DNA of 64,000 nt from Candidatus Multivorans sp. (GCA_965238135.1 OZ250177.1:2336599-2400598); one strand, 5' to 3'. Numbered from the stretch's first letter, positions 35,272 to 63,533 are shown. Numbers and translations: made by a program. Notes: generated by a model not told the origin, from the sequence alone.

Positions 35272-37823
35272 TCATTGATCCACCGGCGCTCGCACTGCGA
35301 GCGTCACCTCCAGGTCGCCGCCGACCAGGTCGACATTCGAGGAGCCCACTACCATCTCGGCCGACACATCGGTACCGGGCGGCCGTACCTCCAACCGGTA
35401 CTGCACCGCGAAGAGACCATCGAGCACGAAGGTGCCGTCTTCCGCGGTGCGGGTGGACATCCGTCGCCTGGCGGCGTTCGCTACCTCGGCCAGGTCCGCA
35501 CTCTGCGATGGCACGGCGGCGATCCGCATGCCGGCCGCCGGCAGACCCGTCTCGGCGTCCAGCAGCCGGCCCCGCACCGTGGCGGTCCTCGCGTCTAGAT
35601 CGACCCGCGCCGTCTCCGTCACCCGGACTGTTCGGCGTTCACCTACCGCGGCAACCGAGATCTCGTCGCCGACATTGAGGTCGCCGACTACGAAGGCGCC
35701 CCGGTGGTCCGTTTGCACAGTCCAGGTCAACGCCCGCCGCTGGTCGCTCACGAAGACCGTTTCGCCGGCCAGCGGCCAACCGTCAAGGGTCACCGTGCCT
35801 TCGACCCGTCCCTGACGGTCCGCAAACGAGATGTCGACCTCCGTCACGCCGCCCGGTGCAAGCTGAAGCGGAGCACGGCGCGACCGGTCAGCCACCGTGG
35901 CGATGGCGACCACGGTGGCGTCCTTCCAGTCCCCGATCTGCGCTTCGAACACCGGCTCGGCCTCGGTCCCGCCAGCTATGCGTCTCATGCCGAGCCCCAT
36001 TGTCCCGCCCTGCCCGAACGAAGCCCGGACGGATACTCCGACCTCCAAGGCCTCGGCGTGGGTCAGGCCCAGAACCCGGACCCTGAGCAGCCGGGGCGCC
36101 GGCACCGTCAGCTCCACGTAGGGCTGGTCACCCGCAATAGCCGACACTTCGACCTCCGGTCCCTGCGCGTTGTCCCGGCGCGCTCTCAACCGGTAGCGGC
36201 CGGGTTCTATCTGAAACTCGAAATCACCTTCCGGACCGGTTTGTGCATCCCCCCGGCCGTAAGAGAACCGAAGCCCGTCCCCGCGCCATGCATCCACCGA
36301 GGCAGCCGGCACGGGCATTCCATTCTGCCCTGTCACCCGACCGCGTACGGTAACCGGCGTCACGTCGATCGTGATCTCACCGAGAGACGCGGTGACGTCG
36401 ATGTCGCGCCGGCTCGGCCGCGTCAGGCCAGGAACGCTGCACTCGAGACTCACCAATCCCGGCGAGGCTCTAAGAGCGAACCGGCCCGAAGCATCCGTGA
36501 CCGAAACAGCCGACCGGATCGACACCGACGCCCCTGCGACCGCCGCGCCGTCACGGATGACGACGCCCAAAACGTCGATCTCAGGCTCGGGGCTCAGGAC
36601 GAGTTCGAGCGGATTCGACGGCACCTCGGCCAAGGAACGCTCGAGACGCTTGTAACCGCCGGCGCGCGCGGTGAGAACTCCCGCGCCCGCGGGGAATCCG
36701 CTCAGGACGAAGTCGCCGTTCCGGTCGGATTCAGTCCCAGCATCGCCGTCCGGAACCGTCTGATCGAACCGGATGCGGGCGCCTTCGATTCCTTCGCCGG
36801 TCACTTCGTCCGCTACCCGTCCGCTCAGTTCCATCGCCTTCCGAAGCCGAACTTCGACTTCTTCGGCGTCCAGGGAGGCATCCACCGCCACCCGCTGCAA
36901 GCGGGCGTTCACGAAGCCTGGCGCCCGGACCGACAGGGAGACGGCGTGGCCGGGCGCCAACCCTGCGACGCGGAAGCGGCCACCCGTGTCGACGCCCACG
37001 TCGGCGATCCTCTCGCTGCCCACGCCCATCGTGAATCTGGAGGCGGTGCCGAAGTCGACCGTGGCGCCGGCCACCGGCGCGCCGTCCTCGTCGACCACCC
37101 GGCCACCGGCGCACCGTTCCGCCTCAGGACACCCTCGACGATCGGCGCGAGCGTTTCCTCGAGCTCCACGGCGACGCTGCCGCCGGAATCGCACTCGACC
37201 GCCTCGGGCTCGTACCCCGGAGCGCCGACCGCCAGCCTCACGTAGTCCCGCCGCACCCCGGACTCGTAGCGGCTCCTTCTTCCAGCCTCGAACTCGTAGC
37301 GGACGGCCTTGCCGGCCTCGATCCCGCGCAAGGGCGGCCACGTACTCCAGCGGCTCGAGAAGCGAAGGCCGCGCGGACTCTGGCCCGCCATGACCCAGGC
37401 GCTGACCGGCGCCACCAAGGTCAAGGTGCAGAAGGAACTCCTGCCGAACTCCACCGGCGGGAGGAGCGTGTCCGTCTCCGGACCAACCAGCAGAAGAGCC
37501 CTTGAAGCAGAGCCTCGTTGTCCCACCCTGACCCAGCGAGCCCCAGGCTCGTCAACCTCGAACGCAAATCGCCCGTCCAGAGCCTGAACCGCCGCTTCCA
37601 CCGGATAGAGACCCACCGGATCGTCACCGAGGACCGCGGCCAGCAGGTCGTACAGCGGCGGCGCCGGCACCAGCGAAACCTTCACCGACGCGCCGTCCGG
37701 CAGGCCCTCAATCGAGCCCCGCACCTCCACCGACGCCATGGCACTGCCGGCCGCGAGCACTGCCGTCACCAGTCCCGTCGCGGCAGCCACGGAACACCCG
37801 CCGTTCAAGACGCGATACCGCAT
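35272..37823 (-). pseudogene. Secreted multi-domain carboxypeptidase-regulatory-like (CarbopepD_reg) repeat protein, interrupted by a 1-nt frameshift near 37100 (authentic pseudogene or sequencing error)
   Basis: ORF 36909..37823 has signal peptide and ends ...VEGVLRRNGAPVAG then runs into junk. ORF 35272..37341 has an Arg-rich junk N-terminus and becomes a CarbopepD_reg repeat protein from RVVDEDGAPVAGATV (nt 37101) onward. The two frames join at GGCCGGGTGG (G-run). Confidence 0.6.
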
Positions 37824-45043: not shown

Positions 45044-46370
45044 AGGGCGGAGGCTCTTCAGGGTTTCGTGTGGAACGTGAGTGAATCGGGGTAGAGGTCG
45101 AGTCCGCCGAGATGGAAGTAGATGGCGATGCGGAAGCGGTCGCGATTTCGGTAGCCGCGCGCGGATTTCTTGAGCCATTGGATGACCGAGTTGATGCCTT
45201 CGAGGCGGGCGTTGGTGACCCCTCGCTCGATCGCGTTCAGCACCCCTTCCAGATGAGCCTTCAGCATCCGGGCCACTCGCTTCATCGGCTCCAGGCGGCT
45301 GCGGATCGCCCACGAGTACCAGCCCTCGAAGGTCGCTCGCGCCTCGGCGCGGTCCCGTGTCTCCCACATCATCATCGCCACTTCCTTCAAGTGCCAGCAG
45401 CGTGCCGTCTTCGACCTACCGTAGATCAGTTCCCTGAAGCGGACCCAGGAGCGGTCCGGCACCCGGTCCGGGTGGTACAGCCACAGGTAGCGCGTGCCGG
45501 CAAGACGCTCGTCGCCTCGGCCTTGCAGAATCCGGTGCTCCGCTCGGCGCACCTCGTCCACTGCTCCGCCGAGGTGCGCCGCGACGTGGAACTTGTCGAA
45601 CCGAGCTTCTGATCGCCGTCCGGCAAGCCGGACACCGTGGCAGAGATGTACGCAGCCCACATGTCCATCGCCACCGTCTCGATCCTCGAACGCTCAGCCT
45701 CCGACAACGACTCGTAGTACGAAGACAGGGCCTCCTTGCCGCGACCGTCCGCCACGTGGTGCACACGCGGCTCACCCTCGAGATCCGCCACCACCGTCAC
45801 GTACTCGTGACGCTTCTGAAACGACGTCTCGTCCACCCCAAGACGGCGACACCCCGGCGCCGGACCGCGGCGCTCGAGGCCGCGCTTCACCGCCCTCTGC
45901 ATCACCCCGTCCACCTGGTCCCAGCTCAAGTCCAGCAGCCGAGCCACCGCCGACATGCTCGCCGCGCCCAGCCAATCGATCACCAGCGCCTCGAACAGTG
46001 CCGTGAAACGCGAACCAGGGTCCGACCACGGCACGCGGATCGTCCGCACCCCGTGCTCCGCGCACCGCACCCGAGGTACGTCCGCGGTCAGGATCGTCCG
46101 GTACTGGCACGTCGGCAGATGACGCCAACTCCGACGACGAGAGTCGTGCCGCCTTGCACCGCCGCCGCACTCCGGGCAACTCAACGACTCCCCGCCGCCA
46201 CGAACCACGAACACCTCCACCTCGCCAGCCTCGAGCCGCAGCTCGACGCCGGTCACTTCCCAGGGTTTCTCGATACCCAGAATCCGACCGTACAAGTCTG
46301 TGTCGCGCATCCAGAAAGACTACGGCATCTCCACCATGAACCCGGAAGAGCCGGAATCATGAAGGGAACA
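45044..46370. mobile_element. ISL3-family insertion sequence (~1.33 kb) flanked by 8-bp direct repeat GAAGGGAA
   Basis: Terminal GGCTCTTC...GAAGAGCC imperfect inverted repeats (45052-45078 / 46336-46362, ~17/23 match); exact 8-bp direct repeats at 45036-45043 and 46371-46378, each 8 nt outside the GGCTCTTC cores; encodes ISL3 transposase. Confidence 0.75.
45058..46310 (-). pseudogene. ISL3-family transposase split by a -1 frameshift near 45640
   Basis: ORF 45426..46310 = N-terminal half (MRDTDLYGRILGIEKPWEVTGVE..CPECG..VAMDMWAAYISA); ORF 45058..45660 = C-terminal half (RFDKFHVAAHL...NARLEGINSVIQWLKKSARGYRNRDRFRIAIYFHLGGLDL). Confidence 0.75.
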
Positions 46371-49058
46371 TTGCATCCAGACGGGCTCCACTACCTTCTG
46401 CGCAGAGTGGCCCAGGCGGCTGGATCATCCAGCGAGCCAAACCTCAGGCTGCTCGGACTGGGCTTCGCAGCACTGCTGGTTGCAGGGGCGTTCCAGACGG
46501 CGCCTGCGAGCGCTGTCGTCTATGTCGTGCCGACCGACGAGAGCTTGGTGGACCGGTCACCCGTGATCGTCTTCGGCGAGATCCTCAGTGCCGGTCCGGG
46601 GCCGGTTGGCAGCGGTCCGACCACGGACTACCTGTTTGCGATCGAGGAAGTGCTCAAGGGTTTCGTTGCCGGCAGCGCGATCATGGTCCGGCAACCCGGC
46701 GGCGTCGGCGTCGACGGCACCGCGATGAAGGTCATGGGTCTGCCGATGCTGGCAGAGGGGGACCGGGTCTTGCTCTTTCTGCGACCGGAGGAATCAGGCG
46801 CCCATCCCATCGTCGAGTACGCCCTTGGAATGTTCTGGGAAGTTGACATGGGCGGTCGGCCGATGCTGCTGCGCGAGCCGTCGCTGCAGGCGTGGGCGCC
46901 GATGCCGGGAGGCGACTCAAGGGTCGCCGAGCCGGCACGCAGGGATCGGCTCCGGGACGGCGCACGCTTTCGCCACTGGATCGCCGATCGGGCCGCAGGC
47001 GTCGAGAGGTCGGCCGACTACTTCGAGAAAGAGCCGCCGGAGGGTCCCGTGGCGGTCCAGTCGCCCTATCGTCTCTGGAGAACACAAGCCGATTGCCTGC
47101 ATGATCTGATGCCGATCCGTTGGCAAGACTTCGACCTCGGGAAGAGCCTCCGCATGACCGTCCACTCAGGAGGACAGGTCGGTGTTCCAGGTGGTGGCAC
47201 GGCCGGAATACGGACCGCAATGAGGGCTTGGAACAACGACCTCGAGAGTCATGTCCGCCTCGCCACCGCAGGTACCGCGACACCAACCGAGGAGAACACC
47301 CAGCCGGACTCTGACCGTTACTGGATTCCCTTCGAGGATCCGTTCGATCAGATCGACGGATCCTTCGATGAAGAGACAGGCGGCACTCTTGCGGTCACTA
47401 TCAATTACTGGTTCTGCGGTGGACAGGTTCCCGTACATAGCACGCTCGGCGATCCACCCGTCCAGGCCCTGCAGATCGGTTACACGCAGCTCATCACTCA
47501 GGACGGCTACGGCGAACAATGGGTGGCCTTGAACGAGAATCCCCAAGAAGCGCACGAGGAGATCATGGCGCACGAACTCGGCCACGTGCTGGGCATCGGA
47601 CACTCTTGCGGTTTCGGCGTTTACCCTTGCCCGGACGACGGCGCGATTGCCGAAGCGATCATGCGTGCCTATCCACATGCCGACGGCCGCGGAGCGCGCC
47701 TGAGCAGCGACGACTTGGCTGCGCTGCGCTATCTCTACCCGATGTCCAGCGGCACCGGAGGCGAGCCGGACGCTCTCGTTTGCAGTGGCGTGACCTGTCT
47801 CCTGCAAGGAGAACGCTTCAGGGTAAAGGCCTGGTACTCGTCGGATGGCGGTCCGAACCAGGGAGCCGGAGCGATAGCGGCCGCAATAGGAGGCTCCGCC
47901 GGCCTGTTCACTTCCAACAGCGACAGTGCCGAACTCCTGGTCAGGATCGCCGATCAATGCAGCGCGAGCGGCTACCGGGCGGTGTACACCGGCGCCGCCT
48001 CGGACGCGGACTTCAGAGTTGCCGTCAGAGACACCGACACCAACGAACTCAAGTGGTTCCGTTCACGCGACGGGCAGGCTGTCGCGGACGCCGAGGCGTT
48101 CTTGTGCGGCGTCGGCGAGACCTCGGAACCGGACCTGGTCGTTTCGTCGGCTTCCGTAAGTGACAGCAGCCTCGATGCCGGAGCGACTTTCACCTTGAGC
48201 GCGACGGTCCGAAACCAGGGTGACGGCCGCTCCAGCTCGACTACTTTGCGCTACTACCGCTCGTCGAACTCGACGATCACCGCGTCAGACACCGAGGTTG
48301 GTACGGATGCAGTAAGGGCTCTTTCCGCCTCGGGCACGAGCGGCGAGTCGATCGTTCTTACCGCGCCTTCGACCCCCGGCACGTACTACTACGGAGCCTG
48401 TGTCGAGTCCGTTTCCGGCGAGTCGAACACGGGCAACAACTGCTCCAGCGGCGTCAGAGTGACCGTCAGTAGCGCTGGCAGCGTAACCGAGTACAGGTAC
48501 GACGACGGGACGCCGATCGGTTTTGTGCCAGCCGACGACGGCTTTCATCTAATCGAGTACGCTCAACGCTTCCGTTTGCCCCGGAGTGGAACCGTCGAAT
48601 ACGCGGTTGTCTGTGTCGGCAGACGCACTACAGGTGGCAGCAACGATCAGCCCCTTGAGCTGAACTTCTACACTGACTCCGGCAGTCGCCCAAGCCGCGA
48701 GCTGGCGAGCTACCAGGCCACTCCGCGGCTTGCCAGGGGAACTTCGGCGTGCAGGAGACTGGCCCTGCCCGGCAGCGGACTCCGTCTCGGCAGCGGCAAC
48801 ACGTGGGTCGGCCTGTCCTGGAGGCTTTCAACCGGCATGGTCATCGCAGCCGACACCAGGGCCACAGGCAGCACGAGCCTCAGCGCCAGAGTACAGGTAA
48901 CACCCATCTCGTCACTGAGTCCCTGGCTGGCCCTGAACGACCTCGAAGTCGTCTTCATCCGCCTCGGAGTCAACCACGGCGGAAGCACGGCCACCACCGC
49001 CCCAACTTCCGCCCATGCCTCCGGACTGTCGGAGAGCGCTCTTCGGCAAAGATTCTAG
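46369..49058 (+). CDS. Secreted zinc metalloprotease (metzincin, HExxHxxGxxH) with C-terminal CARDB-like and beta-rich domains
   Basis: HELGHVLGIGH zinc-binding motif, signal-peptide-like LRLLGLGFAALLVAGAFQTAPASA, CARDB-like segment; ATG 46369 is formed at the IS junction (IS-terminal AT + first G of target duplication). Confidence 0.8.
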
Positions 49059-49400: not shown

Positions 49401-51329
49401 ATGGAGACGAAGAGCTTGGCCATAAAGAGTCCTTTCGTATCGATCCGAGGCGCGCGTAGGAGTTTCGCGGCGTCGATGTGCGCTCTCTCGACGGTTGCAT
49501 TCCTGCTGGTGGCGGCACCGCCGGCCTCGGCGCAGAAGAACAACGTCATCCTGTTCGTTGGCGACGGCATGGGGGTGTCGACTGTCACGTCCACTCGCAT
49601 TGCGACGGTTGGCGTCGACGGGGAGCTGGCTCTTGACCGCATGCCCTATACCGCCATCTCGCGGACTGCGTCGGCCGACTACATCACCCCCGACAGCGCC
49701 GCCACCATGTCGGCGATGATGACCGGCGTCAACACGAATTCCGGCGTGATCGGCTACGGCGCAACCACCGAGTACGCGGACTTCAACGGCAATGGCAACG
49801 GCCCGCCATTGACCAACATCGGCGAGTTGGCCACATCGCGCGGTTACGCGGTCGGGATCGTCACGACGACGCGCGTCACCCACGCGACGCCGGCGGCCGT
49901 CTTCGCGCATGTCAACGACCGCGGCCTGGAGAACGAGATTGCGGCGCAACTGGTACCGGGCGGAGCAGGCTACAACGGGAGGCTCGGAGAGGGGCTCCAC
50001 GTCATCTTCGGAGGCGGCAGGCGGTATTTCCTTCCCACTTCGGCGACCGACGAGGAGGGAAGTGCGGGACGGCGAACGGACGGCCGGGACTTGCGCGCCG
50101 AACTGCGGCAGCGAGGCTATCGCTACGTTTGGAACAAGCAGGGGTTCGATGCGCTGGGCCGGTCCGGACGGGCGGTTGGTCTGTTCGAGTCGAGTCATAT
50201 GGAGTACGAGTCGAACCGGGGGTCGGACACCGGCGGCGAGCCGAGCCTGGAGGAGATGACGAAGAAAGCGATCGAGATCCTGGCCGCTACCGGCAAGCCG
50301 TACTTCCTCATGGTGGAAGCGGGGCGAATCGACCATGCGCACCACGAAGGGAATGCCTTTCGCGCTTTCACCGATACCCGCATGTTCGATCGTGCGATCA
50401 ATGCCGCACGGCAGGCTGTCGATCTCAGAAAGACGCTGATCCTGGCGACCGCCGACCACAGCCACGTCTTCACGATCGCCGGCTACCCGATGCGACCGCT
50501 CACCGATCTGCGCTACAACCCCCGCTCGGTCCCGGCGTCGTTCCGCAACCGGCCGCACAACGGCATCCTGGATACGGTCTACGGCCTGGACAGTACGGGC
50601 GCCATCGTCGAGAACGGGGACAATGACGGCGTTCCCTACACCGTCCTCGGCTATGCCAACGGGCCTGGGTATCGGAGGGGTTCGCGCGTCGATCCCAATA
50701 GCGACACCACGCCGGGTGTCGGCGGCGTCGTTCCCTCTAGTGCCAACGACTCGGCGTACCGGCAGGAGGCAACGGTACCGCTGTTTGCGGAGACGCACGG
50801 CGGCGAAGACGTCATGATCTACGCGGTCGGCCGCACGGCAGAGAACGTGCGTGGCACTGTGCCCAACACGCAGGTGTTCGAGTGGATCAAGGACGGTTTC
50901 TCCGGGAGGAGCACCGGCACACCGCAACCCGACCCGGATCCTGACCCGGATCCCGATCCGGATCCGCCGCCGCCGGCGACTCCGGCCTGCACCCCGACAA
51001 CCACGTCACTCGAATTCGACGGTGGCTACAAAGTCAGCATGTGCTACCTCACGCCCAGCGGGGAGGAAGGCCAGGCCAAGGCCGACATCTGGGCCTCCGA
51101 CCAGTCCGGCATCCTGTGGTTCTTCGACCGCAGCAACGCCGAGGTCCTCGTCAAGGTGCTCGACGGTTGCAAGCACAACGGCTACCGCTGGGTCTTCGTG
51201 GCGCCGGTCACCACCCTCGAGTTCGACCTCTGGGTGACGGGACCCGACGGCAGCCGCTGGACGCACAGCAACCAGCAGGGTGTGACCGCCGCCACCAAGA
51301 GCGACATCAAGGCGTTCCGTTGCCAATAG
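49401..51329 (+). CDS. phoA: Secreted alkaline phosphatase (PhoA family) with PD-repeat linker and ~115-aa Cys-flanked C-terminal domain
   Basis: Signal peptide; LFVGDGMG, active-site Ser region TPDSAATMSAMMTG, metal ligands (DHAHH, ADHSH); linker PQPDPDPDPDPDPPPP; C-terminal domain homologous to the C-terminus of the giant protease at 55622. Confidence 0.85.
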   Translation: METKSLAIKSPFVSIRGARRSFAASMCALSTVAFLLVAAPPASAQKNNVILFVGDGMGVSTVTSTRIATVGVDGELALDRMPYTAISRTASADYITPDSAATMSAMMTGVNTNSGVIGYGATTEYADFNGNGNGPPLTNIGELATSRGYAVGIVTTTRVTHATPAAVFAHVNDRGLENEIAAQLVPGGAGYNGRLGEGLHVIFGGGRRYFLPTSATDEEGSAGRRTDGRDLRAELRQRGYRYVWNKQGFDALGRSGRAVGLFESSHMEYESNRGSDTGGEPSLEEMTKKAIEILAATGKPYFLMVEAGRIDHAHHEGNAFRAFTDTRMFDRAINAARQAVDLRKTLILATADHSHVFTIAGYPMRPLTDLRYNPRSVPASFRNRPHNGILDTVYGLDSTGAIVENGDNDGVPYTVLGYANGPGYRRGSRVDPNSDTTPGVGGVVPSSANDSAYRQEATVPLFAETHGGEDVMIYAVGRTAENVRGTVPNTQVFEWIKDGFSGRSTGTPQPDPDPDPDPDPDPPPPATPACTPTTTSLEFDGGYKVSMCYLTPSGEEGQAKADIWASDQSGILWFFDRSNAEVLVKVLDGCKHNGYRWVFVAPVTTLEFDLWVTGPDGSRWTHSNQQGVTAATKSDIKAFRCQ

Positions 51330-51362: not shown

Positions 51363-54300
51363 CTACATGCTGCGGCGGTACTCGCCACCGACGCGGTACA
51401 GCGCGTCCGAGATCTGGCCGAGCGAACAGTGCTTCACCGTCTCCATCAGTTCCTCGAACACGTTGCCGCGCCGCCGCGCCACCTCTTGCAGACGCGCTAG
51501 CGCCGCCGGGGCCCGCTCGCCGTGGTGGCGGTGGAAAGCGGTGAGGCTCTCGATCTGCTGCTGCTTCTCGCCGTCCGTCGAGCGGATGAGTTCCGCTGCG
51601 ACCGTCTCCGCGAACTCCTGGCCCTCGGCGAGGAAGGTGTTCACGCCGACCACGGGCAGGCTGCCGTCGTGCTTCTTCGTCTCGTACTCCATGCTCTCGT
51701 CCTGGATCTTGGAACGCTGGTACATCGTGTCCATCGCCGCCAGCACGCCGCCGCGCTCGGCCAGGCGCTCGAACTCCAGGAATACTGCCTGCTCCACCGC
51801 ATCGGTCAGTTGATCCAGGGCGAAGGACCCCTGCCACGGGTTCTCGCTCCGGTTGAGACCGAACTCCCGGTTGATGATCATCTGGATCGCCAGCGCCCGC
51901 CGCACGGACTGCTCGGTCGGCGTCGTGATCGCCTCGTCAAAGGCGTTCGTGTGCAGCGAGTTGCAGCGGTCGAGGATGCCGTAGAGCGCCTGCAGCGTGG
52001 TGCGGATGTCGTTGAACTGGATCTCCTGCGCGTGCAGCGAGCGACCGGAGGTCTGGATGTGGTACTTCAGCATCTGGCTGCGCGCCGAGGCGCCGTACCG
52101 CTGGCGCATCGCCCTCGCCCAGATGCGGCGCGCCACGCGGCCGATCACGGCGTACTCGGGGTCCATGCCGTTCGAGAAGAAGAAGGACAGGTTGGGGGCG
52201 AAGTCGTCGATCGCCATGCCCCGCGCCAGGTAGTACTCGACGATCGTGAAGCCGTTGGCGAGTGTGAACGCCAACTGGGTGATCGGGTTCGCCCCGGCCT
52301 CGGCGATGTGGTACCCGCTGACCGAAGCGCTGTAGTAGTTACGGACGTTGTGATCGATGAAGAACTGCTGGACATCGCCCATCATCCGCAGTGAGAACTC
52401 GGTTGAGAAGATGCAGGTGTTCTGCGCCTGGTCCTCCTTCAGGATGTCCGCCTGCACCGTGCCCCGCACTCGCCCCAGGGCATCCGACCGGATCCGCTCG
52501 TAGATCTCGCGCTCCACCAAACGGTCGCCGGCGATGCCGAGCAGCGCCAGACCCAGGCCGTCGCTGCCTTCCGGCAACTCGCCGCGATAGACCGGCACGT
52601 CGCCGTCGTAGCGCCGGCTGATCTCTGCTCGAGCGCGCTCAAGGCCGCCGGTCTCCTGCAAATGGCATTCGACCTGCTGGTCGATCGCCGCGTTCATGAA
52701 GAAGGCGAGGATGGTCGGCGCAGGGCCGTTGATCGTCATCGACACCGAGGTCGCCGGATCGCATAGATCGAAGCCCGAGTACAGGCGTTTCATGTCGTCG
52801 ACCGTGGCGATCGACACGCCGGAGTTCCCGACCTTGCCGTAGATGTCGGGCCGCAGCCCCGGGTCCGAACCGTAGAGGGTGACCGAGTCGAAGGCCGTCG
52901 ACAGGCGGGAAGCCGGCTGCCCGCGCGACACATAGTGGAAGCGCTTGTTCGTGCGTTCCGCGATCCCCTCGCCGGCGAACATCCGGGTCGGCTCCTCGCC
53001 GCGCCGCCGGTAGGGATAGACGCCGGCGGTGTACGGATAGGCGCCCGGCAGGTTGTGCTTCATCAGGAAGCGCAGCAGGTCGCCCCAGTCGGAGTAGCTC
53101 GGCAGCGCCAGTTTCGGCATCCGCAGGTGGCTGAGGGTCGTGACGTAGTTGTCGCCCGTGATCTCGCGGCCGCGGACCGGGTAGCTGTAGCGCTCCGAGC
53201 GAGCGGCTGCCGCACGCTCGGGCCACTCCGCTAAGAGCTCCACCGCCTCAGCGCCGACTTCAAGAAGCGCCTCCTGGTAGCTCGTGCGCAGACGCGCGAC
53301 GCTCTCGTCCGGCGCGGTTTCGAGGACTGCCGATGGGTATGCGGCAAACGGCTTCGGCAGCTCCGGATCCTCCAGCTCGGCAAGCGCCCGGTAGCACGAC
53401 TGCGCCTTCGAGGCGGCCACAGCGCGAAGCTCGACATCGGCCTCGGCAGCCCGCGCGGCCTCCGCGATCTCGGCCAGGTAACGGCTGCGATGGTCGGGAA
53501 TCAGGGCCGCCGCCCGCGGTGCGCGTTCGTCGATGTCGATCTGCGGGGTCCAGGCGACCTCGTCCAGATCGAGCCGCTCGTGCAGCAACCGGCAGACATT
53601 CCAGAACATCCAGTTGACGCCGGGGTCCTGGAACTGGCTGGCGATCGTCGGGTAGACGGGCACCTCCTCGTCACCGGTCTGGAAGGCAAGGCGGTTGCGG
53701 CGCCACTGCTTGCGGATGTCGCGCAGCGCGTCCTGGCCGCCCCGCCGATCGAACTTGTTCAGCACGATCACGTCCGCGAAGTCGAGCATGTCGATCTTCT
53801 CGAGCTGGCTCGCCGCGCCGTAGTCCGAAGTCATCACGTACATCGAGAGATCCACCAGATCGACGATCTCGCTGTCGCTCTGACCGATGCCCGCGGTCTC
53901 GACCAGGACCAGGGAGAACCCGGACGCCTTGAGCAGCGACACCGCATCGCCCAGCACTTCGCTGGTCGCGCGGTGCTGGCGTCGCGTCGCCATCGACCGC
54001 ATGAACACCCGGTCGCTGCGCAAGCTGTTCATGCGGATTCGGTCGCCGAGCAGGGCGCCGCCGGTGCGACGCCGGGTCGGGTCGACCGCCAGCACGGCAA
54101 TCCGCCGCTCGGCGACGGCAGCCGGGAAGCACAGAACAAAGCGGTTCAGCAGCTCGTCGGCGACGCTGCTCTTGCCGGCGCCGCCGGTACCGGTCAGGCC
54201 CACGACCGGCACGCCGGCCCCCGCAAGCTGCCATTCCTTGCGCAGGCGCCGCAGCTCGGACTCGTTCACGGCGCCGCGCTCGATCGCGGACAGCAGCCGT

Positions 54301-54827
54301 GACAGGTTCCCGTCGCCATCCGGATTCGCCGCCACCCGCACCGTGAACCGCGGCTCGGGCGCCGGCCGGCGCTTCGCGTGGACGCGTTCAACGACATCGT
54401 CGATCATCGCCGGCAGGCCCATCTTCAACCCGTCGTCCGGGTGGTACACGCGTTCGACGCCGTATGCCTGCAGCTCGGCGATCTCCTCGGGCGTAATCGT
54501 GCCGCCGCCGCCGCCGAAGACCAGGACGTGCCCGGCGCCCTCCTCGGCCAAGCGGTCGATCATGTACTGGAAGAACTCGATGTGGCCGCCCTGGTAGGAA
54601 CTGATCGCGATCGCATCCGCGTCCTCCTGCACCGCGGCGCGCACGATCTCGTCGACGCCGCGGTTGTGGCCCAGATGGATGACCTCGGCGCCGCGATCCT
54701 GGATCATCCGCCGCATGATGTGGATCGCCGCGTCGTGACCGTCGAACAGCGACGCCGCGGTCACGAACCGCAGCGGGCTGGCATCCCGGGCGGGACTGGA
54801 ACTGCGTCTCGGTTCGGGTGTGGTCAT
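51363..54827 (-). CDS. icmF: Fused isobutyryl-CoA mutase (B12-binding domain + MeaB-like G-protein + mutase catalytic domain)
   Basis: N-terminal B12-binding DGHDAAIHIMRR, central MeaB GTPase (GLTGTGGAGKSS, NKFDR), C-terminal methylmalonyl-CoA-mutase-like TIM barrel; 1154 aa. Confidence 0.9.
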   Translation of the reverse strand: MTTPEPRRSSSPARDASPLRFVTAASLFDGHDAAIHIMRRMIQDRGAEVIHLGHNRGVDEIVRAAVQEDADAIAISSYQGGHIEFFQYMIDRLAEEGAGHVLVFGGGGGTITPEEIAELQAYGVERVYHPDDGLKMGLPAMIDDVVERVHAKRRPAPEPRFTVRVAANPDGDGNLSRLLSAIERGAVNESELRRLRKEWQLAGAGVPVVGLTGTGGAGKSSVADELLNRFVLCFPAAVAERRIAVLAVDPTRRRTGGALLGDRIRMNSLRSDRVFMRSMATRRQHRATSEVLGDAVSLLKASGFSLVLVETAGIGQSDSEIVDLVDLSMYVMTSDYGAASQLEKIDMLDFADVIVLNKFDRRGGQDALRDIRKQWRRNRLAFQTGDEEVPVYPTIASQFQDPGVNWMFWNVCRLLHERLDLDEVAWTPQIDIDERAPRAAALIPDHRSRYLAEIAEAARAAEADVELRAVAASKAQSCYRALAELEDPELPKPFAAYPSAVLETAPDESVARLRTSYQEALLEVGAEAVELLAEWPERAAAARSERYSYPVRGREITGDNYVTTLSHLRMPKLALPSYSDWGDLLRFLMKHNLPGAYPYTAGVYPYRRRGEEPTRMFAGEGIAERTNKRFHYVSRGQPASRLSTAFDSVTLYGSDPGLRPDIYGKVGNSGVSIATVDDMKRLYSGFDLCDPATSVSMTINGPAPTILAFFMNAAIDQQVECHLQETGGLERARAEISRRYDGDVPVYRGELPEGSDGLGLALLGIAGDRLVEREIYERIRSDALGRVRGTVQADILKEDQAQNTCIFSTEFSLRMMGDVQQFFIDHNVRNYYSASVSGYHIAEAGANPITQLAFTLANGFTIVEYYLARGMAIDDFAPNLSFFFSNGMDPEYAVIGRVARRIWARAMRQRYGASARSQMLKYHIQTSGRSLHAQEIQFNDIRTTLQALYGILDRCNSLHTNAFDEAITTPTEQSVRRALAIQMIINREFGLNRSENPWQGSFALDQLTDAVEQAVFLEFERLAERGGVLAAMDTMYQRSKIQDESMEYETKKHDGSLPVVGVNTFLAEGQEFAETVAAELIRSTDGEKQQQIESLTAFHRHHGERAPAALARLQEVARRRGNVFEELMETVKHCSLGQISDALYRVGGEYRRSM

Positions 54828-55621: not shown

Positions 55622-58600
55622 CTACGGCTCGCAGCCCTCCGCGAACGCCGTCGCATCCGTGATCGCCGGCGCCGGCAGGCCCGGCTCGTTCCGGTACTCC
55701 TTCGCCGTACCCGTCACCGTGTCCGTCACCCGGATCAAGTACCCCAGATCCGTCGTCGAGGCCCCGAACACCCACACGTGACCGTTCAGTGCACAACCGT
55801 CCAGCACCTTGATCAGCACTTCCCAGTTGTCCCGGTCGAAGAACCGGAACAGACCCGAGTCGTTCGTCCCAGCATGGACCACGATGCCTCTACCGCTGTG
55901 CCCTTCGCCGTTCCACCAGTCCACGACCACGGAGTAGCGCGAGTCCTGAAGGCACCGCGTCTCCGGGTCCGCCTCGCACGTCCCCGCCGGGTCGCTCGAC
56001 TCCACCAGGAAGGTCCGCGACGCCGTCGACTCCCGCATGCCGTCACTCACCCACAGCGTCACCTCGTAGAAGCCCGGCTCAGACCAACTGCGATCCAACG
56101 TTCGCGCACCCAACTCCGCACCGTCACCGAAATCCCACCTCCGCGACTGAATCGGCCCGTTGCTCCTATCCGTGAATCGCACCGACTGCCCGGTGACAGC
56201 CCGGCACAGCTCGGCGTCGCACGCGGCGCCACCCACATCGATGGTGGCCATCGGCGGTGTGTCGTCGTCCTGGATCGACACCGTCGTCCCGGCGCCGCCG
56301 CTCACCCCCGACGGCAGATCCCCGAAACCAACCACGACCGACTCGCCGTAGTCCTCATCGCTGTCGTCCGTCGCCGAGAACTCGAACTCCCGGGTCGTTG
56401 TGCCGCTACTGAACACCACGCTCGCGGGCACACCCGAATAGTCGGCATCCATCGCTCCGCCCAGGTGCGTGTGTACCAGCGGAATCGTCAACTCCCGCTC
56501 CGGGTCCCCGCTCAACTGCACCGACACCCGAACCGTCCCGCCTTCCGACACCTCGTAGCCCGACGACCCGAACGACACCGATACCTCCGGATCGTCGTCA
56601 TCCCGAATCGTCCCCGTCACTTGTAGTTCGGCGCCGCCGCCGGCCAGCGACGCGTTCGCCGGGTTGCGAAGCGTCAACGTGAATGTCTCCGCTTCTGCCT
56701 CGTCGTTACCATCGTCCGTGATCGCAACGCGAATGAGCTGGGCCGCAGTCGTCCTGGCGGGAAACGTCAGTGTGCCGCTCGTCGCCGTGAAGTCCGAACC
56801 CGCGCGCGCGCCGGCGGAACCCGCTCCATCCGCTGTGGCGTAGTCCACCGTCACCGCCGAACTGCTCGCCGCGCTCAGCATCACGGCGAACACGACCGCC
56901 CCGGCGCTCTCCGATGCCTCAGACCCTTCGACCGACACCATCGGCCTGGGGCTACCGCTACCGCCACCGCCGCCACCGCCACCGCCACCGCGATCCCCAT
57001 CGTTGTCCAGGATCGCCAACGTGGTTCCACCGCCACCGCTGACCCGCGCCGGCAGGGTCCCGAAACTCAGCACAACCGCTTCGCCGTCGTCATCTTCGCT
57101 GTCGTCTGTCGCCGTGAACGGGAACTCCCGTTCCGTCTCCCCGCTCGCGAACACGACGCTCGACGGCAACCCCGAGTAGTCGAGTTCCTCCACTCCGCCT
57201 CGGGGCGTCTTCACCAGGGGAATCACCACCCGTCGCTCCGGATCGGCGCTCAGATTCACGCTCACCTGCACGCTGCCGCCCTCGGTCACTTCATAGCTCG
57301 TCTTGCCGAACGACACCACCACCTCGGGATCGTCGTCGTCACGAATCGTCCCCACCGCGGTCAGACGCGGCCCGCCGCCCGCAAGCGGCGCGCCCCGCGC
57401 GTCGAACAGCCTCAACGTGAACGTCTCCTCTTCCTCCTCGTCCACAAGGTCGTCGACGACCACTATATGGATCTCCCGAACTCCCGTCGTCCCGGCGGGG
57501 AAGGTCAGCGTGCCGTACACCGCCGTGTAGTCCGAGCCCACTGACGCCCTGTCGTCACCGGGCACCCCGCCCAATGACGCGTACTTCACCGTCACCTCGG
57601 CGCTGCTCGCGCTACTCAGCGCCACCTCGAACACCATCTCACCTACGCCCTCCGTCGCCCACGCGTCCTCGACCGACAGCGTCGGGGTGTCGTTCTCCAC
57701 GATCGTCACCTTGACCGAAGGAACCGGCACTAAACCGTAGTCGCCGCCGCTGGCCGCGTGGCGGATGGTCACCGGAGCGTCCGCCACACCGTCCGAGTCG
57801 TCGGCCGCCGTCACTTCGATCCCCTGCGCCCGGCTCCAGTTGCTCTGCGTGAACGTCAGCACCGTCCTGTCCACCGACACATCCGTGTGCGCCAGGTCCG
57901 TCGTCAGCCGGACTTCCACGGCCGCCGTCGGCTGCGAAGTCAACACCACCGTGTAACTCCTCGTACCGGCCTCCGGCACCAACAAACTCGGTTCCGAGAT
58001 GACCACCGCGCGCCGGTCGGTTTCGCCGATGGTGACCGTCACCGCGTCCACGGAGACATCCTGGTAGCCGCCGCCGCTCGCCGTATGGCTGATCGCCACC
58101 GGAGCGTCCGCCACCGCGTCCAGGTCGGCGACCGCCGTCACCTCGATCGTCTGCGCCAGCCTCCAGTTGTTCGTCGTGAAGGTCAGCGCCTGCCTGTCCA
58201 CCGACACGTCCGTATTCGCCGGCACCGTCACCGCCAGCGTCACCGGGGCGCTCGGCCGCGAATGCAGCGCCACCGTGTAGGTCCCGGTCGAGCCCTCCCG
58301 CAGACTCAGCGCCTGGGGCGCCACCGTCGCGCCGGGCGGACGGGGCGCCTGGTCGCCGAACTCCTCCCACGTCGCCTTCCCGTCCCCGTTCACATCCACC
58401 GACAGAATCGGGTACTGGGTGGCCGACCCGAAGTGCCAGGGGGAGTCGGTCACACCGTCGCCGTCGAGATCCACGTTCCAGGTCCGATAGATCCCGCTAT
58501 AGCCCGTGGGTGTCTGCAACTGTGCCGTCGTCTTGCCCTGGCCATGGGATCCGGTCGTCTGTCCGGATGTCTGGGTATCCCAGTAGCTCGCGCGGATCTC

Positions 58601-61600
58601 GCCGGAGCGGTACTCCCCGACCAGACCGCCGACATCGACCGAACCACCCGACACGAGACCGGTGGCATAGCTGACGATGACCGGACCGCGGGACGAGCCG
58701 ACCAGACCGCCGGTACGCTCGGTACCCGAGACGCCGCCGGTGGCGTAGCTGGCGGTGATGGCGCGGAAGGAACTCCCGACCAGACCGCCGACAACAAACT
58801 CACCCGACACCTGGGCAGTGGCATAGCTGCCGGCTATGGGGCCGCTGGATTTCCCGACCAGACCGCCGACCTGGTCAGGCAGTTGGTCGGGATCGTCCTG
58901 GCCCGCCACGCTGCCCGTCACGTAGCTGCCGGTGACGGCGGCCTGGGAAAACCCGACCAGACCGCCGATCCAGCCCCAGCCCGTCACATCCACGCCGATC
59001 AGACCGACGTTGCGGATGACGGCGGACTCATGCCAGGTCACGCCGAACAGGCCGACCATCGGCTCATTCCGCTCGATGAACAGGTTGGCGATGGCATGCC
59101 CGTTGCCTTCGAAGGTCGTCGCGAACGCCTCGTGGAAGGCGACGGAGCGTTGCCGAGGGGAAACGCTGAAACCACGGATCGGCACCCAGCCGGCGCCGGC
59201 GTTCCAGTACGCGTCGCCCGCATCGGCGGCGCCGTTCCTGTTGGTGTCGAAGTCCAGGTCGGCGAGCAGCTCGTACCCCCCGCACCCAGCGCCGCCGTCG
59301 CAGCCCATCCCTTCGACGGCGTCCGGAAAGGCCGCGGCGTAGGTGACGATCCCACCGGCCGCGGGGGCGCCGTCACCATTCAAGTCATGGCGCACGGCAT
59401 TGAGCTGCGCCAGGGTCCTGATATCGATCAGCCCGTCGTCATCGCTGTCGTAGTCGACGGCGGTCGCCGTCCACACCGCGACCGGAAACGACTGCGTCGC
59501 GCTCGTGTTCGATCCGCCGGCGTCGGTCGCCGTCACTGTGATCGTCGCGCGCCCTGCGGCTGCCGGCGCAATCGTCACCAGCGCTCCTGACACGCTCGTC
59601 GTGGCGATGGACGTTGAGGACGAGGACGCCGTGTAGGTCAGAGCATCGTCGTCCGGCTCCCGGAACGCCCCCGAGACGTCCACCACCAGCGTCGGCCCTC
59701 CTACGCGCAGCGTTCGGAGCGCCAACGCCCCCACCGCCACCGGCGACTGGTTGGCCACACCCGCGATCACCGCAACCGCCCCACTGCGCGTCGCTTCGCC
59801 GCCAGCGACCACGGCCGCCACCTGGTACGTATAGGCCGCGCCGGCGGTCACATCGGTATCGGTGTACGGCGAGTTGCCGACTCCCTCGGCAAGGGTCTCG
59901 AGGGTGGCGCCGTCGTCGCGGGTCAGGGTGTAGGTGACGCCCGGCGCCGGATTCCAGTGGCTCGCATCCACCGCCGTCCAGCTCAGGACCACCCGGGCCG
60001 CCCCGGCCGTCGTGGTCGCGGTCAGGGCCGGGCCGGCCCGAAGCTGATAGCCGAACTCCTGCCATGTCGCTCGCCCGTCGCCGTCCGTATCCGCCGACAG
60101 GGCCGGGTACTGGGTGCTCGTGCCGAAGGTCCAGGGGTGGTTGGGCAGGCCATCGGCGTCCAGGTCCGCGTCCCACGCCCGATAGATACCCTCGTAGCCG
60201 GTGGGGGTCTGCAGGGCGGCGGTCGTCAGGCCTCTGGCGAAGCCGCCGCCCGAGCCGATTCCCACGCGTACCCCGGAGGTCTCCAGATCCCAGTAGCCCT
60301 GGCGAACCCGCCAGGTGGAACCAAACACGTAGCCAATCAACCCACCAACTTCCGACGCGCCCGAGACTGCTCCCGTCGCGTAGCTGGCGGTGACGTTGAA
60401 GCTGCCTCGGCCAATCAGGCCGCCGGACCAGAAGGGTGCGGACACGGGCCCGGTGGCGTAGCTGCTCGTGATTTCGCCGCCGCCTCGTCCGACCAGGCCG
60501 CCGGCGACGTTCGTGCTCGCCGACACGCTGCCCGTGGCGTAGCTGCTCGTGATGTAGCTGCTCACCGACCCGACCAGGCCGCCAACGCTGGATTGCCCCG
60601 TTACAGTGACACTGGCGGCGCTGTTCAGAACGCCTGTCGGGCCCTGGCTGACCTCACCGGCGTAGCCGATCAGGCCGCCCACACGAATACGCCCGGACAC
60701 CTGGCCCGCGGCCTGGCAGCGTTCGACGTGCCCCGCGACCCCGGCCAAGCCGCCGACCGTATCGTCGCCGGTCACGTTCACACCGACCAGGCGGAGATCG
60801 CGAAGCGTTCCGTCGGCATGACCGAACAAGCCGACCGCCCTCAGCGCGGGCCGGTCGACGTACAGATTGGCCAGGGTATGGCGATTCCCCTCGAAGACGG
60901 CCGTGAAGGAGGCGTCGCTGTCGTTGTAGTAGGCGCTGCCTGTGTGGAAACCGATCGGCTGCCAGCCGGCACCATCGTTCCAGTACGTGTCGCCCGCATC
61001 CGCGGCGCCGCTCCCGTCGGTGTCGAAGTCCAGGTCCGCCGTCAGCTCGTAGCCGACACACCCGCCCCCGTCGGGGCAGCCCATGCCCGCCTTGCCATCG
61101 GGGAAGGCCGAGAAATACGCGGGCCAGGACGCCGCCATGTCCACCCCGCCGTCGCCGTCGAGGTCGTAGCGCAGGGCATCGAGCTGCGCCAGGCTGGCGA
61201 CCTCGATGAGACCGTCATTGTCGGCGTCGTAGTCCTGGTCGCCCGCCGTGACGGCAACCGTGAAGGTCCGCGTCGCTTTCAAGCCACCGGGGTCGGTCGC
61301 GCGCACCCTCATCGTCGCGGTGCCCGGAGCCACCGGCGTCAGCGTCAGTTGGGACCCGGTCAAGGCAGTCGTCACCCGGTCGGAGCCGATCAACCGCACC
61401 CCGTAGGTCAACACGTCGCCGTCCGGATCGGTGAACGCGCTCGCCAGGTCGATCGTCACCGCGGGGCCGCCCGCCGCCAACTCCCGGTCGGCCAGCTCAC
61501 CCACCGCGGTCGGCGCCTTGTTGCGGTCCGCCACCGCGACCGCCACCGCCGCCACCGCGGCCGGCGCCATCACGATGCCGGCGCCGGAATCTCGATCGAC

Positions 61601-63427
61601 GCCGGTTGCCTCGATATCGAGCGCCGACCCCGTCATCGCTGTGCGGAGCGCCGACTGCGTCACGTTGTTGGGGCCGCCGGCCGCCTCGAGCATCAAGGCC
61701 GCGATCGCCGCCCCGTGCGGCGCCGCCGCCGACGTGCCGGAGAACGGCGAGAAGCCGGGCGTCGACGTCGACACTCCATCGGCCGTGACGCCGTCCGGCT
61801 TCGCCACTTCCCTCCCGCCGGTCGACGAGAAGTTGCCTGCCGTGATCGCCGTGCCGTCCGGCTGGAAAAAGATCCGGCGCGGTCCGTCCGAGCTGTAGGT
61901 GCGGACGGACTCCGTGCCATTGAAGATGCCGCCGGCGCCGGCGGCGGTCCGGGCGTCGACGGCCCCCACGGTGATCGCGCTCGCTGCCGCAAAGTGCCCG
62001 AACACGTTGCCGGCGGTCGCCTCCTCCAACTGCCCTCCGATGGCGCTGAGGCGCAGGTAGCGATCCGCGTCCGCAGCATCGACCTTGACGACGACGAGAA
62101 AGGCGTCGGCGTGGTCCCGCGCCTGCGAGCTGATGGACTCGATCGGGTCCTGCGTGCCGTCCTGCGTATCCGTCGAGCTCGCAAGGACGTTGTCGTCCGC
62201 GTCGACCAGGAAGAGGTCGTAGTCGTTCGCGGACGCCCCCAGCGGGTCGGCCCACTGGAGAACGAACGAAGAGAGGCTGTCCTTGGTGATCTGGTTCTCG
62301 ACCGCGCTGGCGCCGAAGTCGTGCCGGACGCCGACCGCTTCGCCGTCCACGGTCATCGGGCTCCCCGCGGCGTAGTCGCCCTCCCAGACCCCGGACGTGC
62401 CATCGTTCAGATTGCCGGAATTGCCGGCAGCGGTGATGTAGGCACAACCTCCGGCGACCGCGGCGTTGACCCCCTGCGCCACGACGCCGTCCTGCAAGGT
62501 CGCCTCGGTAAAATAGAAGATGTCGTCGATGACGATGTCCGCCCCCGCCTCGCACAGCGACTCGACGTTCGCCGCGAACTGCGCCTGACCACCCTTCCCG
62601 GTGGCGAAGTACAGCTCGGCGCCCGGCGCGAGGTCATGGACGATCTCGAGCATCGCCGTCCCCTCGTCGCCCGATCCCGCCTGCCCGGGCAGCACCGTCA
62701 CCCGATCCGGAAGGTCGCCCGACGCCTGCCGGGTCGACAGCGTCCGGACGCCACTCGAAATGACGCCGATCCCGATGCCGGCGCCGTCGACGCCATGCGT
62801 CTGGCGCGCCGTGTTCGCCCCGTGAGCGACATCGCCCTCGGATGTGTTGACCGCCTGACTTCCGACGACAACCAGCGCCTCCGCGCGGAGGTCGGATGGA
62901 AACCCCCGCGTGAGGCTCGGTGTAGCCGCCTGGTCGGCAGCGCGGATGAACTGAACCGCGTCGAGTGCGGCGAGCGGCTCCACAGCGGCCAGCGGAAGGC
63001 GCGCCCGGATGGCCCGGTACTTCACCACGCTGTTGATCACGGTACCGCCCAGGGATTCGATGCGCGCCAGGACTTCGGTCGTGACGTCGGCCCGGATGTC
63101 CACCGTCACGCCCTCGTCCGCGGCGCGATCTTCCGGCTCACGCCCGTGTACAACATCGCCGGTCGTCGACGGCGCGATGGCGGCGGCCCGCCTCGCGGCG
63201 TCAGCCGCGTCCAGGAGCCGCGAGCCCACCTTCCGCTGCGCAGGCGTCCGCCGCGCTTTCGCCGCCAGCACCGCTTCGATCGACTGCCCGGCCGTCGCCT
63301 GGGGCGCGTCGTCGGTCTGTGCATGGGCGGTCCCAGCCAAGGCCAGCAGCGCCAGCACCTCCAGCAGTCGCCGGCCGGCCCGACCCGGCCGGATATCGCA
63401 CGGAGGAGTTCGCTGACGGTGGGACAT
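55622..63427 (-). CDS. Giant (~2600 aa) secreted multidomain protein: N-terminal subtilisin-like S8 peptidase, two GLUG-repeat blocks, four Calx-beta domains, PKD domain, Cys-flanked C-terminal domain shared with PhoA
   Basis: Subtilase Ser motif GTSAAAPHGAAIAAL and Asp/His regions; repeated SYATG.VSG....GGLVG units; Calx-beta-like GTLTFPAGTTG..I.V.DD..E..E.F.L.L x4; PKD WDFGDG...YEVTLWVSDG; start placed at ATG 63427 preceding signal peptide (ORF opens 63607). Confidence 0.85.
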   Translation of the reverse strand: MSHRQRTPPCDIRPGRAGRRLLEVLALLALAGTAHAQTDDAPQATAGQSIEAVLAAKARRTPAQRKVGSRLLDAADAARRAAAIAPSTTGDVVHGREPEDRAADEGVTVDIRADVTTEVLARIESLGGTVINSVVKYRAIRARLPLAAVEPLAALDAVQFIRAADQAATPSLTRGFPSDLRAEALVVVGSQAVNTSEGDVAHGANTARQTHGVDGAGIGIGVISSGVRTLSTRQASGDLPDRVTVLPGQAGSGDEGTAMLEIVHDLAPGAELYFATGKGGQAQFAANVESLCEAGADIVIDDIFYFTEATLQDGVVAQGVNAAVAGGCAYITAAGNSGNLNDGTSGVWEGDYAAGSPMTVDGEAVGVRHDFGASAVENQITKDSLSSFVLQWADPLGASANDYDLFLVDADDNVLASSTDTQDGTQDPIESISSQARDHADAFLVVVKVDAADADRYLRLSAIGGQLEEATAGNVFGHFAAASAITVGAVDARTAAGAGGIFNGTESVRTYSSDGPRRIFFQPDGTAITAGNFSSTGGREVAKPDGVTADGVSTSTPGFSPFSGTSAAAPHGAAIAALMLEAAGGPNNVTQSALRTAMTGSALDIEATGVDRDSGAGIVMAPAAVAAVAVAVADRNKAPTAVGELADRELAAGGPAVTIDLASAFTDPDGDVLTYGVRLIGSDRVTTALTGSQLTLTPVAPGTATMRVRATDPGGLKATRTFTVAVTAGDQDYDADNDGLIEVASLAQLDALRYDLDGDGGVDMAASWPAYFSAFPDGKAGMGCPDGGGCVGYELTADLDFDTDGSGAADAGDTYWNDGAGWQPIGFHTGSAYYNDSDASFTAVFEGNRHTLANLYVDRPALRAVGLFGHADGTLRDLRLVGVNVTGDDTVGGLAGVAGHVERCQAAGQVSGRIRVGGLIGYAGEVSQGPTGVLNSAASVTVTGQSSVGGLVGSVSSYITSSYATGSVSASTNVAGGLVGRGGGEITSSYATGPVSAPFWSGGLIGRGSFNVTASYATGAVSGASEVGGLIGYVFGSTWRVRQGYWDLETSGVRVGIGSGGGFARGLTTAALQTPTGYEGIYRAWDADLDADGLPNHPWTFGTSTQYPALSADTDGDGRATWQEFGYQLRAGPALTATTTAGAARVVLSWTAVDASHWNPAPGVTYTLTRDDGATLETLAEGVGNSPYTDTDVTAGAAYTYQVAAVVAGGEATRSGAVAVIAGVANQSPVAVGALALRTLRVGGPTLVVDVSGAFREPDDDALTYTASSSSTSIATTSVSGALVTIAPAAAGRATITVTATDAGGSNTSATQSFPVAVWTATAVDYDSDDDGLIDIRTLAQLNAVRHDLNGDGAPAAGGIVTYAAAFPDAVEGMGCDGGAGCGGYELLADLDFDTNRNGAADAGDAYWNAGAGWVPIRGFSVSPRQRSVAFHEAFATTFEGNGHAIANLFIERNEPMVGLFGVTWHESAVIRNVGLIGVDVTGWGWIGGLVGFSQAAVTGSYVTGSVAGQDDPDQLPDQVGGLVGKSSGPIAGSYATAQVSGEFVVGGLVGSSFRAITASYATGGVSGTERTGGLVGSSRGPVIVSYATGLVSGGSVDVGGLVGEYRSGEIRASYWDTQTSGQTTGSHGQGKTTAQLQTPTGYSGIYRTWNVDLDGDGVTDSPWHFGSATQYPILSVDVNGDGKATWEEFGDQAPRPPGATVAPQALSLREGSTGTYTVALHSRPSAPVTLAVTVPANTDVSVDRQALTFTTNNWRLAQTIEVTAVADLDAVADAPVAISHTASGGGYQDVSVDAVTVTIGETDRRAVVISEPSLLVPEAGTRSYTVVLTSQPTAAVEVRLTTDLAHTDVSVDRTVLTFTQSNWSRAQGIEVTAADDSDGVADAPVTIRHAASGGDYGLVPVPSVKVTIVENDTPTLSVEDAWATEGVGEMVFEVALSSASSAEVTVKYASLGGVPGDDRASVGSDYTAVYGTLTFPAGTTGVREIHIVVVDDLVDEEEEETFTLRLFDARGAPLAGGGPRLTAVGTIRDDDDPEVVVSFGKTSYEVTEGGSVQVSVNLSADPERRVVIPLVKTPRGGVEELDYSGLPSSVVFASGETEREFPFTATDDSEDDDGEAVVLSFGTLPARVSGGGGTTLAILDNDGDRGGGGGGGGGGSGSPRPMVSVEGSEASESAGAVVFAVMLSAASSSAVTVDYATADGAGSAGARAGSDFTATSGTLTFPARTTAAQLIRVAITDDGNDEAEAETFTLTLRNPANASLAGGGAELQVTGTIRDDDDPEVSVSFGSSGYEVSEGGTVRVSVQLSGDPERELTIPLVHTHLGGAMDADYSGVPASVVFSSGTTTREFEFSATDDSDEDYGESVVVGFGDLPSGVSGGAGTTVSIQDDDTPPMATIDVGGAACDAELCRAVTGQSVRFTDRSNGPIQSRRWDFGDGAELGARTLDRSWSEPGFYEVTLWVSDGMRESTASRTFLVESSDPAGTCEADPETRCLQDSRYSVVVDWWNGEGHSGRGIVVHAGTNDSGLFRFFDRDNWEVLIKVLDGCALNGHVWVFGASTTDLGYLIRVTDTVTGTAKEYRNEPGLPAPAITDATAFAEGCEP

Positions 63428-63533
63428 TTCCGGCGGGAACCTGCGCGGTAGACGGCACGAGGTGGCCGTGGAGGCGCGCGGAGTCGTACTCGTCGTTGTA
63501 CGCCCCGGCAACCTCAGCCCTCTGGGGGCCGCG

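Follow-up and report, generated by a model that had tools for sequence, protein, structure and literature searches.

Results

A predicted extracellular domain shared by three probably exported proteins

The data are best explained by an extracellular domain of about 115 residues that folds autonomously, carries two disulfides and belongs to a family we did not find described. Three copies of it are encoded in the 64-kb window (the whole stretch of DNA analyzed). According to the ORF listing and translation, the alkaline phosphatase PhoA is encoded at 49401..51329 on the plus strand (642 aa). Its Pfam Alk_phosphatase core covers residues 47-496 and follows an N-terminal signal-like segment (residues 1-44, ending in AAPPASA before a Q) that contains RRSF. 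A Pro/Asp-rich linker, PQPDPDPDPDPDPDPPPPATPA (50922..50987, plus strand), joins the phosphatase core to domain copy 1 (50988..51326, plus strand), which forms the C-terminus of PhoA (C530-Q642, 113 aa; profile E=2.7e-48). The whole window is identical to part of a 4.45-Mb metagenome contig at ENA (ERZ26167216, ctg495886), on which the same PhoA protein is encoded. Copy 2 (55625..55978, minus strand; profile E=1.3e-77) makes up the last 118 aa of a giant exported protein (55622..63427, minus strand) of about 2600 aa, counted from M61 of the mechanical ORF (55622..63607). Both proteins stop shortly after their last cysteine, PhoA after one further residue and the giant protein after two (...AFRCQ and ...EGCEP, respectively). 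These two C-termini had originally been predicted to be homologous, and they are so far beyond chance, the tails sharing 38% identity over 109 aa (BLASTP, E=3e-19).

The prediction that two proteins share the domain was correct for this pair, but a third copy had been missed. When the tails were compared with the window by tblastn, copy 3 (47781..48110, plus strand) was found at an internal position of an M10-like metalloprotease/CARDB protein (46359..49058, plus strand; 900 aa from MKGTL; mechanical ORF 45756..49058). It is located between the zinc-metalloprotease region, which contains the HELGHVLGIGH zinc motif (47571..47603, plus strand), and a CARDB domain (48129..48446, plus strand) that is followed by about 200 more residues. 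Copy 3 is divergent, with 22% identity to copy 1, and scored E=4.1e-17 with a profile built without it. No ORF other than these three matched the domain profile in the whole 64-kb window. The copies represent different subtypes: copy 1 is of the 'C2-prime' subtype with the second Cys in strand 2 (SMCY), copy 2 belongs to the majority subtype and has CxxxxxxxCL at its N-terminus, and the subtype of copy 3 recurs as 4-copy tandem arrays in two relatives (P0189 and P0201).

All three carriers have signal-like N-termini. The in-frame stretches at the upstream ends of the two mechanical ORFs (45756..46358 and 63428..63607) are probably non-coding, and the likely starts are 46359 (MKGTL), which fits the public-collection gene call of 899 residues for the metalloprotease, and 63427 (MSHRQ) for the giant protein.

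Although all three copies lie inside 18 kb, there is next to no probability that the resemblance arose by chance or through a recent duplication restricted to this locus, given the E value of the pairwise comparison, the thousands of relatives elsewhere and the different subfamilies to which the window copies belong. Local duplication had been named as an outcome that would speak against a shared tag, and it was ruled out by the nearest relatives in other genomes, which showed 79-83% identity to the window copies in a word-indexed protein search (limited to proteins no longer than about 1.75 times the query), as against 22-38% among the window copies themselves.

Composition of the giant protein and other genes of the window

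In addition to copy 2, the giant protein comprises a signal-like segment, a subtilase-like region, Big_9, GLUG repeats, four Calx-beta domains and a PKD domain (PKD_4, residues 2474-2532; 56006..56200, minus strand) immediately upstream of the copy. This order of PKD followed by the domain is a recurrent pairing, found in many relatives. Apart from the subtilase-like region, the protein (Big_9, GLUG, Calx-beta, PKD) is adhesin-like in look. The label 'giant subtilase', under which the protein had been introduced, should be used tentatively. Alignment to subtilisins was confined to the surroundings of the Ser motif (GTSAAAPH; E=3e-5 in the PDB search, E=1e-4 against BPN'), and no Pfam match to Peptidase_S8 (PF00082) was obtained at E<=0.01. 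The sites where the Asp and His motifs are expected read, by eye, VISSG and DEGTAMLEIVHDL (DEGT); the subtilase-like motif segments lie at 62750..62767, 62630..62650 and 61715..61738 (minus strand). Judged from these residues, the catalytic triad could be degenerate or a sedolisin-like (E-x3-D) variant.

The gene between the two domain-bearing genes phoA and that of the giant protein encodes IcmF, a fused isobutyryl-CoA mutase/GTPase (51363..54827, minus strand; NCBIfam equivalog, 1629 bits), and appears to represent unrelated housekeeping metabolism. Elsewhere in the window, a GlnRS-type and a GluRS-type class I Glx-tRNA synthetase are encoded less than 8 kb apart (21778..23481, plus strand, and 28047..29552, minus strand), with an SMC/AAA-like gene (1079 aa) and a metallophosphatase gene between them. 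An FG-GAP/ASPIC protein (31003..32748, minus strand) and a protein with six CarboxypepD_reg repeats (35272..37341, minus strand) are apparently exported and free of the domain; thus, not every exported protein of the organism is tagged. No secretion or sortase genes were found in the 64-kb window, the remainder of which consists of housekeeping genes, icmF and genes for domain-free exported proteins.

Predicted fold, cysteines and conserved residues

The AF2 model of the PhoA copy was all-beta (pLDDT 94.5, pTM 0.86) and agreed in strand order with that of the giant-protein copy (pLDDT 96.3, pTM 0.89), both having some ten beta strands and a single short helix that starts at the LDGC cysteine. 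A Foldseek search with the domain model returned nothing at E<=1e-3. As judged from the model, the structural resemblance to known proteins is at the level of the fold class only, and a close solved relative is absent.

Four Cys positions were evaluated in 426 non-identical domain copies. C1 was present in 98% of the copies, C2 in 65% and an alternative C2', located eleven alignment columns further on and used by PhoA, in 31%; C3, the cysteine of KVLDGC, was found in 98%, and C4, situated 1-4 residues after the AF motif, in about 96%. The cysteines were lost in pairs, C1 together with C2 in five copies and C3 together with C4 in six, whereas loss of a single Cys was almost never seen. This pattern of co-loss indicates two disulfides, C1-C2 and C3-C4, and hence that the domain would fold and reside outside the cytoplasm. 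Of the structure that had been anticipated, the all-beta part was borne out by the AF2 models of the two copies; the single terminal disulfide thought to bracket the domain was not, two separate pairs taking its place. The RRSF sequence in the signal region of PhoA (residues 19-22, 49455..49466) resembles a twin-arginine motif, which would be odd for this protein because its C-terminal domain would need two disulfides; export may be by Sec or by Tat.

The domain signature can be written as C-x(~38)-SGL-x2-FF-x3-N-x-E-x-L-x-KVLDGC-x2-N-x3-WVF-x-A-x2-T-...-D-x2-AF-x(1-4)-C. Among residues outside the core, N50, E52, K56, D59, N64, T75 and D106 were highly conserved (88-98% of about 426 copies). 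This conservation bears on the idea that the domain serves structure or folding, for instance as a stabilizing cap, as an intramolecular chaperone, as a propeptide-like module or as an oligomerization domain, and has no specific external ligand. Such a role would suit a compact, disulfide-stapled and confidently predicted domain that is carried C-terminally, singly or in pairs, by proteases and phosphatases, in the manner of the pre-peptidase C-terminal domain (PPC). We nevertheless regard it as quite unlikely, since conservation of N50, E52, K56, D59, N64 and D106 at this level in diverse copies suggests a conserved interaction site and not a mere scaffold, and since the domain also occurs on non-enzymatic adhesin-like proteins and in arrays of up to four copies. 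PPC (PF04151) is comparable in that one or two beta-sandwich copies are attached C-terminally to secreted proteases and hydrolases of marine bacteria; however, our domain gave no PF04151 match and is also found on adhesin-like non-proteases and at N-terminal positions.

Size of the family and its hosts

When a 22-sequence alignment of the domain (A1) was used for an exhaustive HMMER search of 1.84 billion representatives, 10,290 clusters (50% identity) were matched at E<=1e-3, of which 4,242 reached E<=1e-30. A more distant subfamily was also recovered, by the word-indexed search. In the full proteins, no Pfam or NCBIfam model extended over the domain at E<=0.01, and none of the 22 isolated domains matched a model, with noise only even at E<=10. 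The domain was likewise uncovered in multi-copy relatives. A profile search of PDB sequences with the domain found nothing. The profile searches against Pfam and NCBIfam that had been suggested as a check thus matched no characterized family, CBMs included, and the domain proved to be real and unnamed. Members of the family are called 'hypothetical protein' in the databases or bear names borrowed from their partner domains, the cluster names of the representatives gave little taxonomic information, and literature searches on the lineage, on eukaryotic-like proteins, on C-terminal domains and on the KVLDGC motif yielded no description. The domain is therefore widespread, and neither an annotation nor a description of it was found in the databases and literature searched.

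In a scan of species-representative genomes, the best 80 loci were all from metagenome-assembled genomes (MAGs) of Acidobacteriota, the host bins being Thermoanaerobaculia, 'Candidatus Multivorans/Multivoraceae', sponge 'Holophagales' and one coral Vicinamibacteraceae. With the narrow search pattern used, a single chromosome (OX638294.1) accounted for 12 of these best 80 loci. Overall, at least 578 domain copies were confirmed. Hosts of the distant subfamily were mostly marine Thermoanaerobaculia, Acidobacteriota or unclassified MAGs. A few matches were attributed to Alphaproteobacteria, Chloroflexi and Deltaproteobacteria, which may be binning errors; those from Alphaproteobacteria and Chloroflexi were partial proteins on contigs of at most 5.6 kb, and the one from Deltaproteobacteria lay on a 201-kb contig. 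Where a host is named, it nearly always belongs to the marine or host-associated Acidobacteriota, and the domain is found many times per genome, on a variety of exported proteins.

Domain architecture of the relatives

For the architecture statistics, the top 150 representatives were used; 'small' matches consisting of PKD plus the domain, mostly gene-call fragments, were left out. Two copies per protein were found in 143 of the 150 and four copies in the other 7, in a sample that is biased towards multi-copy proteins because these score highest. The extreme C-terminus is favored, as had been predicted: in 123 of the 150 (82%) the last copy lay within 10 residues of the C-terminus, the median tail being 1 residue. 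A first copy near the N-terminus followed by a long tail was seen in 17 of the 150, and internal copies only in 10. The 79 related loci contained 119 domain-bearing ORFs, often as two to four genes in a row. Of these ORFs, about 75% stop 0-3 residues after the domain and the others carry 100-800 more residues. Modules placed C-terminal to the domain in relatives include FGE-sulfatase, FG-GAP/VCBS and NHL.

The partner domains comprise fn3, cadherin, CARDB, Calx-beta, TSP3, reprolysin and matrixin, as well as alkaline and purple acid phosphatases. PD/PE-type linkers are common among the relatives, and those resembling the PhoA linker were scored as Trypan_PARP low-complexity matches. The diversity of partners and the low-complexity linkers agree with the original view that the domain is joined by linkers to unrelated exported proteins. 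An N-terminal hydrophobic segment was present in 99 of the 139 representatives that start with Met. At the other end, a hydrophobic 15-mer was found within the last 40 residues in none of the 150 representatives, which is in good agreement with the predicted lack of a TM helix and basic tail.

These architectures can be read in terms of protein sorting. The domain would then be the recognition signal of an undescribed secretion or surface-attachment route in marine Acidobacteriota and, much like the C-terminal domain (CTD) of the T9SS, would be recognized in the periplasm as a folded beta domain and thereafter cleaved or attached covalently. Such a route would account for the terminal position of the last copy in most representatives, for the large share of ORFs ending directly past the domain and for its attachment through linkers to functionally unrelated exported proteins. 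Further points in its favor are the many loci on OX638294.1, the additional domain-bearing ORFs in the flanks of the best loci, the N-terminal signal-like segments of the carriers, which make a second step at the outer membrane plausible, and the restriction to one lineage, as is usual for sorting systems. On balance we consider this reading unlikely. A dedicated C-terminal sorting tag is expected to be terminal and single, and it fits poorly because the internal copy of the window, the N-terminal copies and the arrays of two to four copies are left unexplained; such internal, N-terminal and tandem arrangements are common. Moreover, no member matched Por_Secre_tail, PEP-CTERM or any other sorting model of NCBIfam or Pfam, no conserved cleavage motif was seen at the domain boundary, where there are only variable linkers, and no candidate machinery was detected in the window or the 79 flanks. 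Of the sorting tag proposed originally, the terminal bias, the promiscuous fusion, the many carriers per genome and the lineage restriction thus stand; the internal, N-terminal and tandem copies, the absence of matches to sorting models and the lack of nearby machinery speak against it. Secretion by a T1SS of the RTX type was rejected, as the carriers combine signal-like N-termini with conserved disulfides.

Genomic neighborhoods of related loci

No convincing recurrent partner or sorting enzyme was found in the flanks of the 79 related loci. The flanks contained syntenic neighbors only, namely a GT1 glycosyltransferase, a radical SAM/SPASM protein, an Asp/Asn beta-hydroxylase, a TolC-like fusion, a LuxR-type regulator and an HNH protein. 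T9SS core genes (PorU/PorV/SprA and others) were absent both from these flanks and from the 64-kb window.

In seven syntenic loci (including L012, L015, L018, L021, L027 and L033; ~3.3-5.5 kb), a domain-bearing gene is followed by one whose product combines a very long (GD)n repeat with an Asp/Asn beta-hydroxylase domain. Because the domain has invariant Asn and Asp residues, their post-translational hydroxylation is conceivable, and the linkage to the beta-hydroxylase may be mere synteny. Another group (L038-L047, ~0.4-6.3 kb), conserved in several genomes, has three consecutive genes whose products end in the domain, followed by genes for a GT1 glycosyltransferase and a radical SAM/SPASM protein. 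A fusion of ABC substrate-binding-like and TolC-like efflux parts is encoded directly downstream of 1114-aa proteins ending in two domain copies (L069, L070 and L077; 3427..5997); this arrangement is confined to three orthologous loci.

Discussion

In our view, the domain constitutes a new family with a familiar mode of use. One close parallel in use is the CTD of the T9SS, which is likewise a folded, beta-rich C-terminal domain of about 100 aa found on many unrelated exported proteins with N-terminal signal peptides, with many carriers per genome and a lineage-restricted distribution. In contrast to the T9SS CTD (TIGR04183/PF18962; type B, TIGR04131), our domain gave no match to these HMMs, has two conserved disulfides, frequently occurs in tandem, internal or N-terminal copies and is found in Acidobacteriota. 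T9SS is not known to occur in Acidobacteriota. The positional rule of the T9SS CTD, a single copy always at the extreme C-terminus, is also broken by our domain, even though 82% of the 150 representatives end with a copy. The signals of the PEP-CTERM/exosortase, LPXTG/sortase and GlyGly-CTERM/rhombosortase systems resemble it in being C-terminal elements on many exported proteins of one genome. However, those consist of a short motif, a TM helix and a basic tail, whereas ours is a globular domain of 115 aa that has no hydrophobic tail (none among the 150 representatives) and no NCBIfam match.

In a further, improbable reading, the domain would serve as a cargo tag for some undescribed pathway of outer-membrane secretion or surface attachment in marine, sponge- and coral-associated Acidobacteriota (Thermoanaerobaculia), like the T9SS CTD in function and unrelated to it in sequence and fold. 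Such a tag would mark dozens of host-matrix adhesins and hydrolases per genome.

A modular extracellular binding or anchoring module is more likely to fit the anatomy of the domain than a secretion tag, and the domain may well be such a module. This reading is based on the position-independent and tandem occurrence, the stabilization by disulfides, the Pro-rich linkers, the adhesin and hydrolase partners and the conserved polar and aromatic signature. Tandem repetition and position independence are typical of binding modules that act through avidity. The carriers would cross the inner membrane by means of their own N-terminal signal peptides, and the domain would then fold and become oxidized outside the cytoplasm. 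There it would hold a wide range of secreted enzymes and adhesins on a single common ligand, probably a repetitive one; candidates are polysaccharides or matrix components, the envelope or EPS of the bacterium itself, and a host matrix. By analogy, the domain might be used like CBMs, SLH, LysM or dockerin modules. It differs from these in that it matched none of their Pfam models and in its much stronger C-terminal bias. That preference, stronger than is usual for CBMs and resembling that of sorting domains, counts against a binding module.

With more than 10,000 clusters (50% identity) lacking a Pfam or NCBIfam model and a close solved structure, the family represents a real annotation gap. 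Much of the 'eukaryote-like' protein set that the dominant Acidobacteriota symbionts of sponges and corals export carries the domain, including cadherin, fn3, Calx-beta, TSP3, reprolysin, matrixin and phosphatase proteins. If it were indeed a sorting signal, it would define a previously unrecognized route of secretion or attachment in the Acidobacteriota, a major phylum. Once its ligand, or the machinery that recognizes it, were known, it would become clear how these uncultured bacteria present their enzymes and adhesins, and their surface and secreted proteins could be predicted from sequence.
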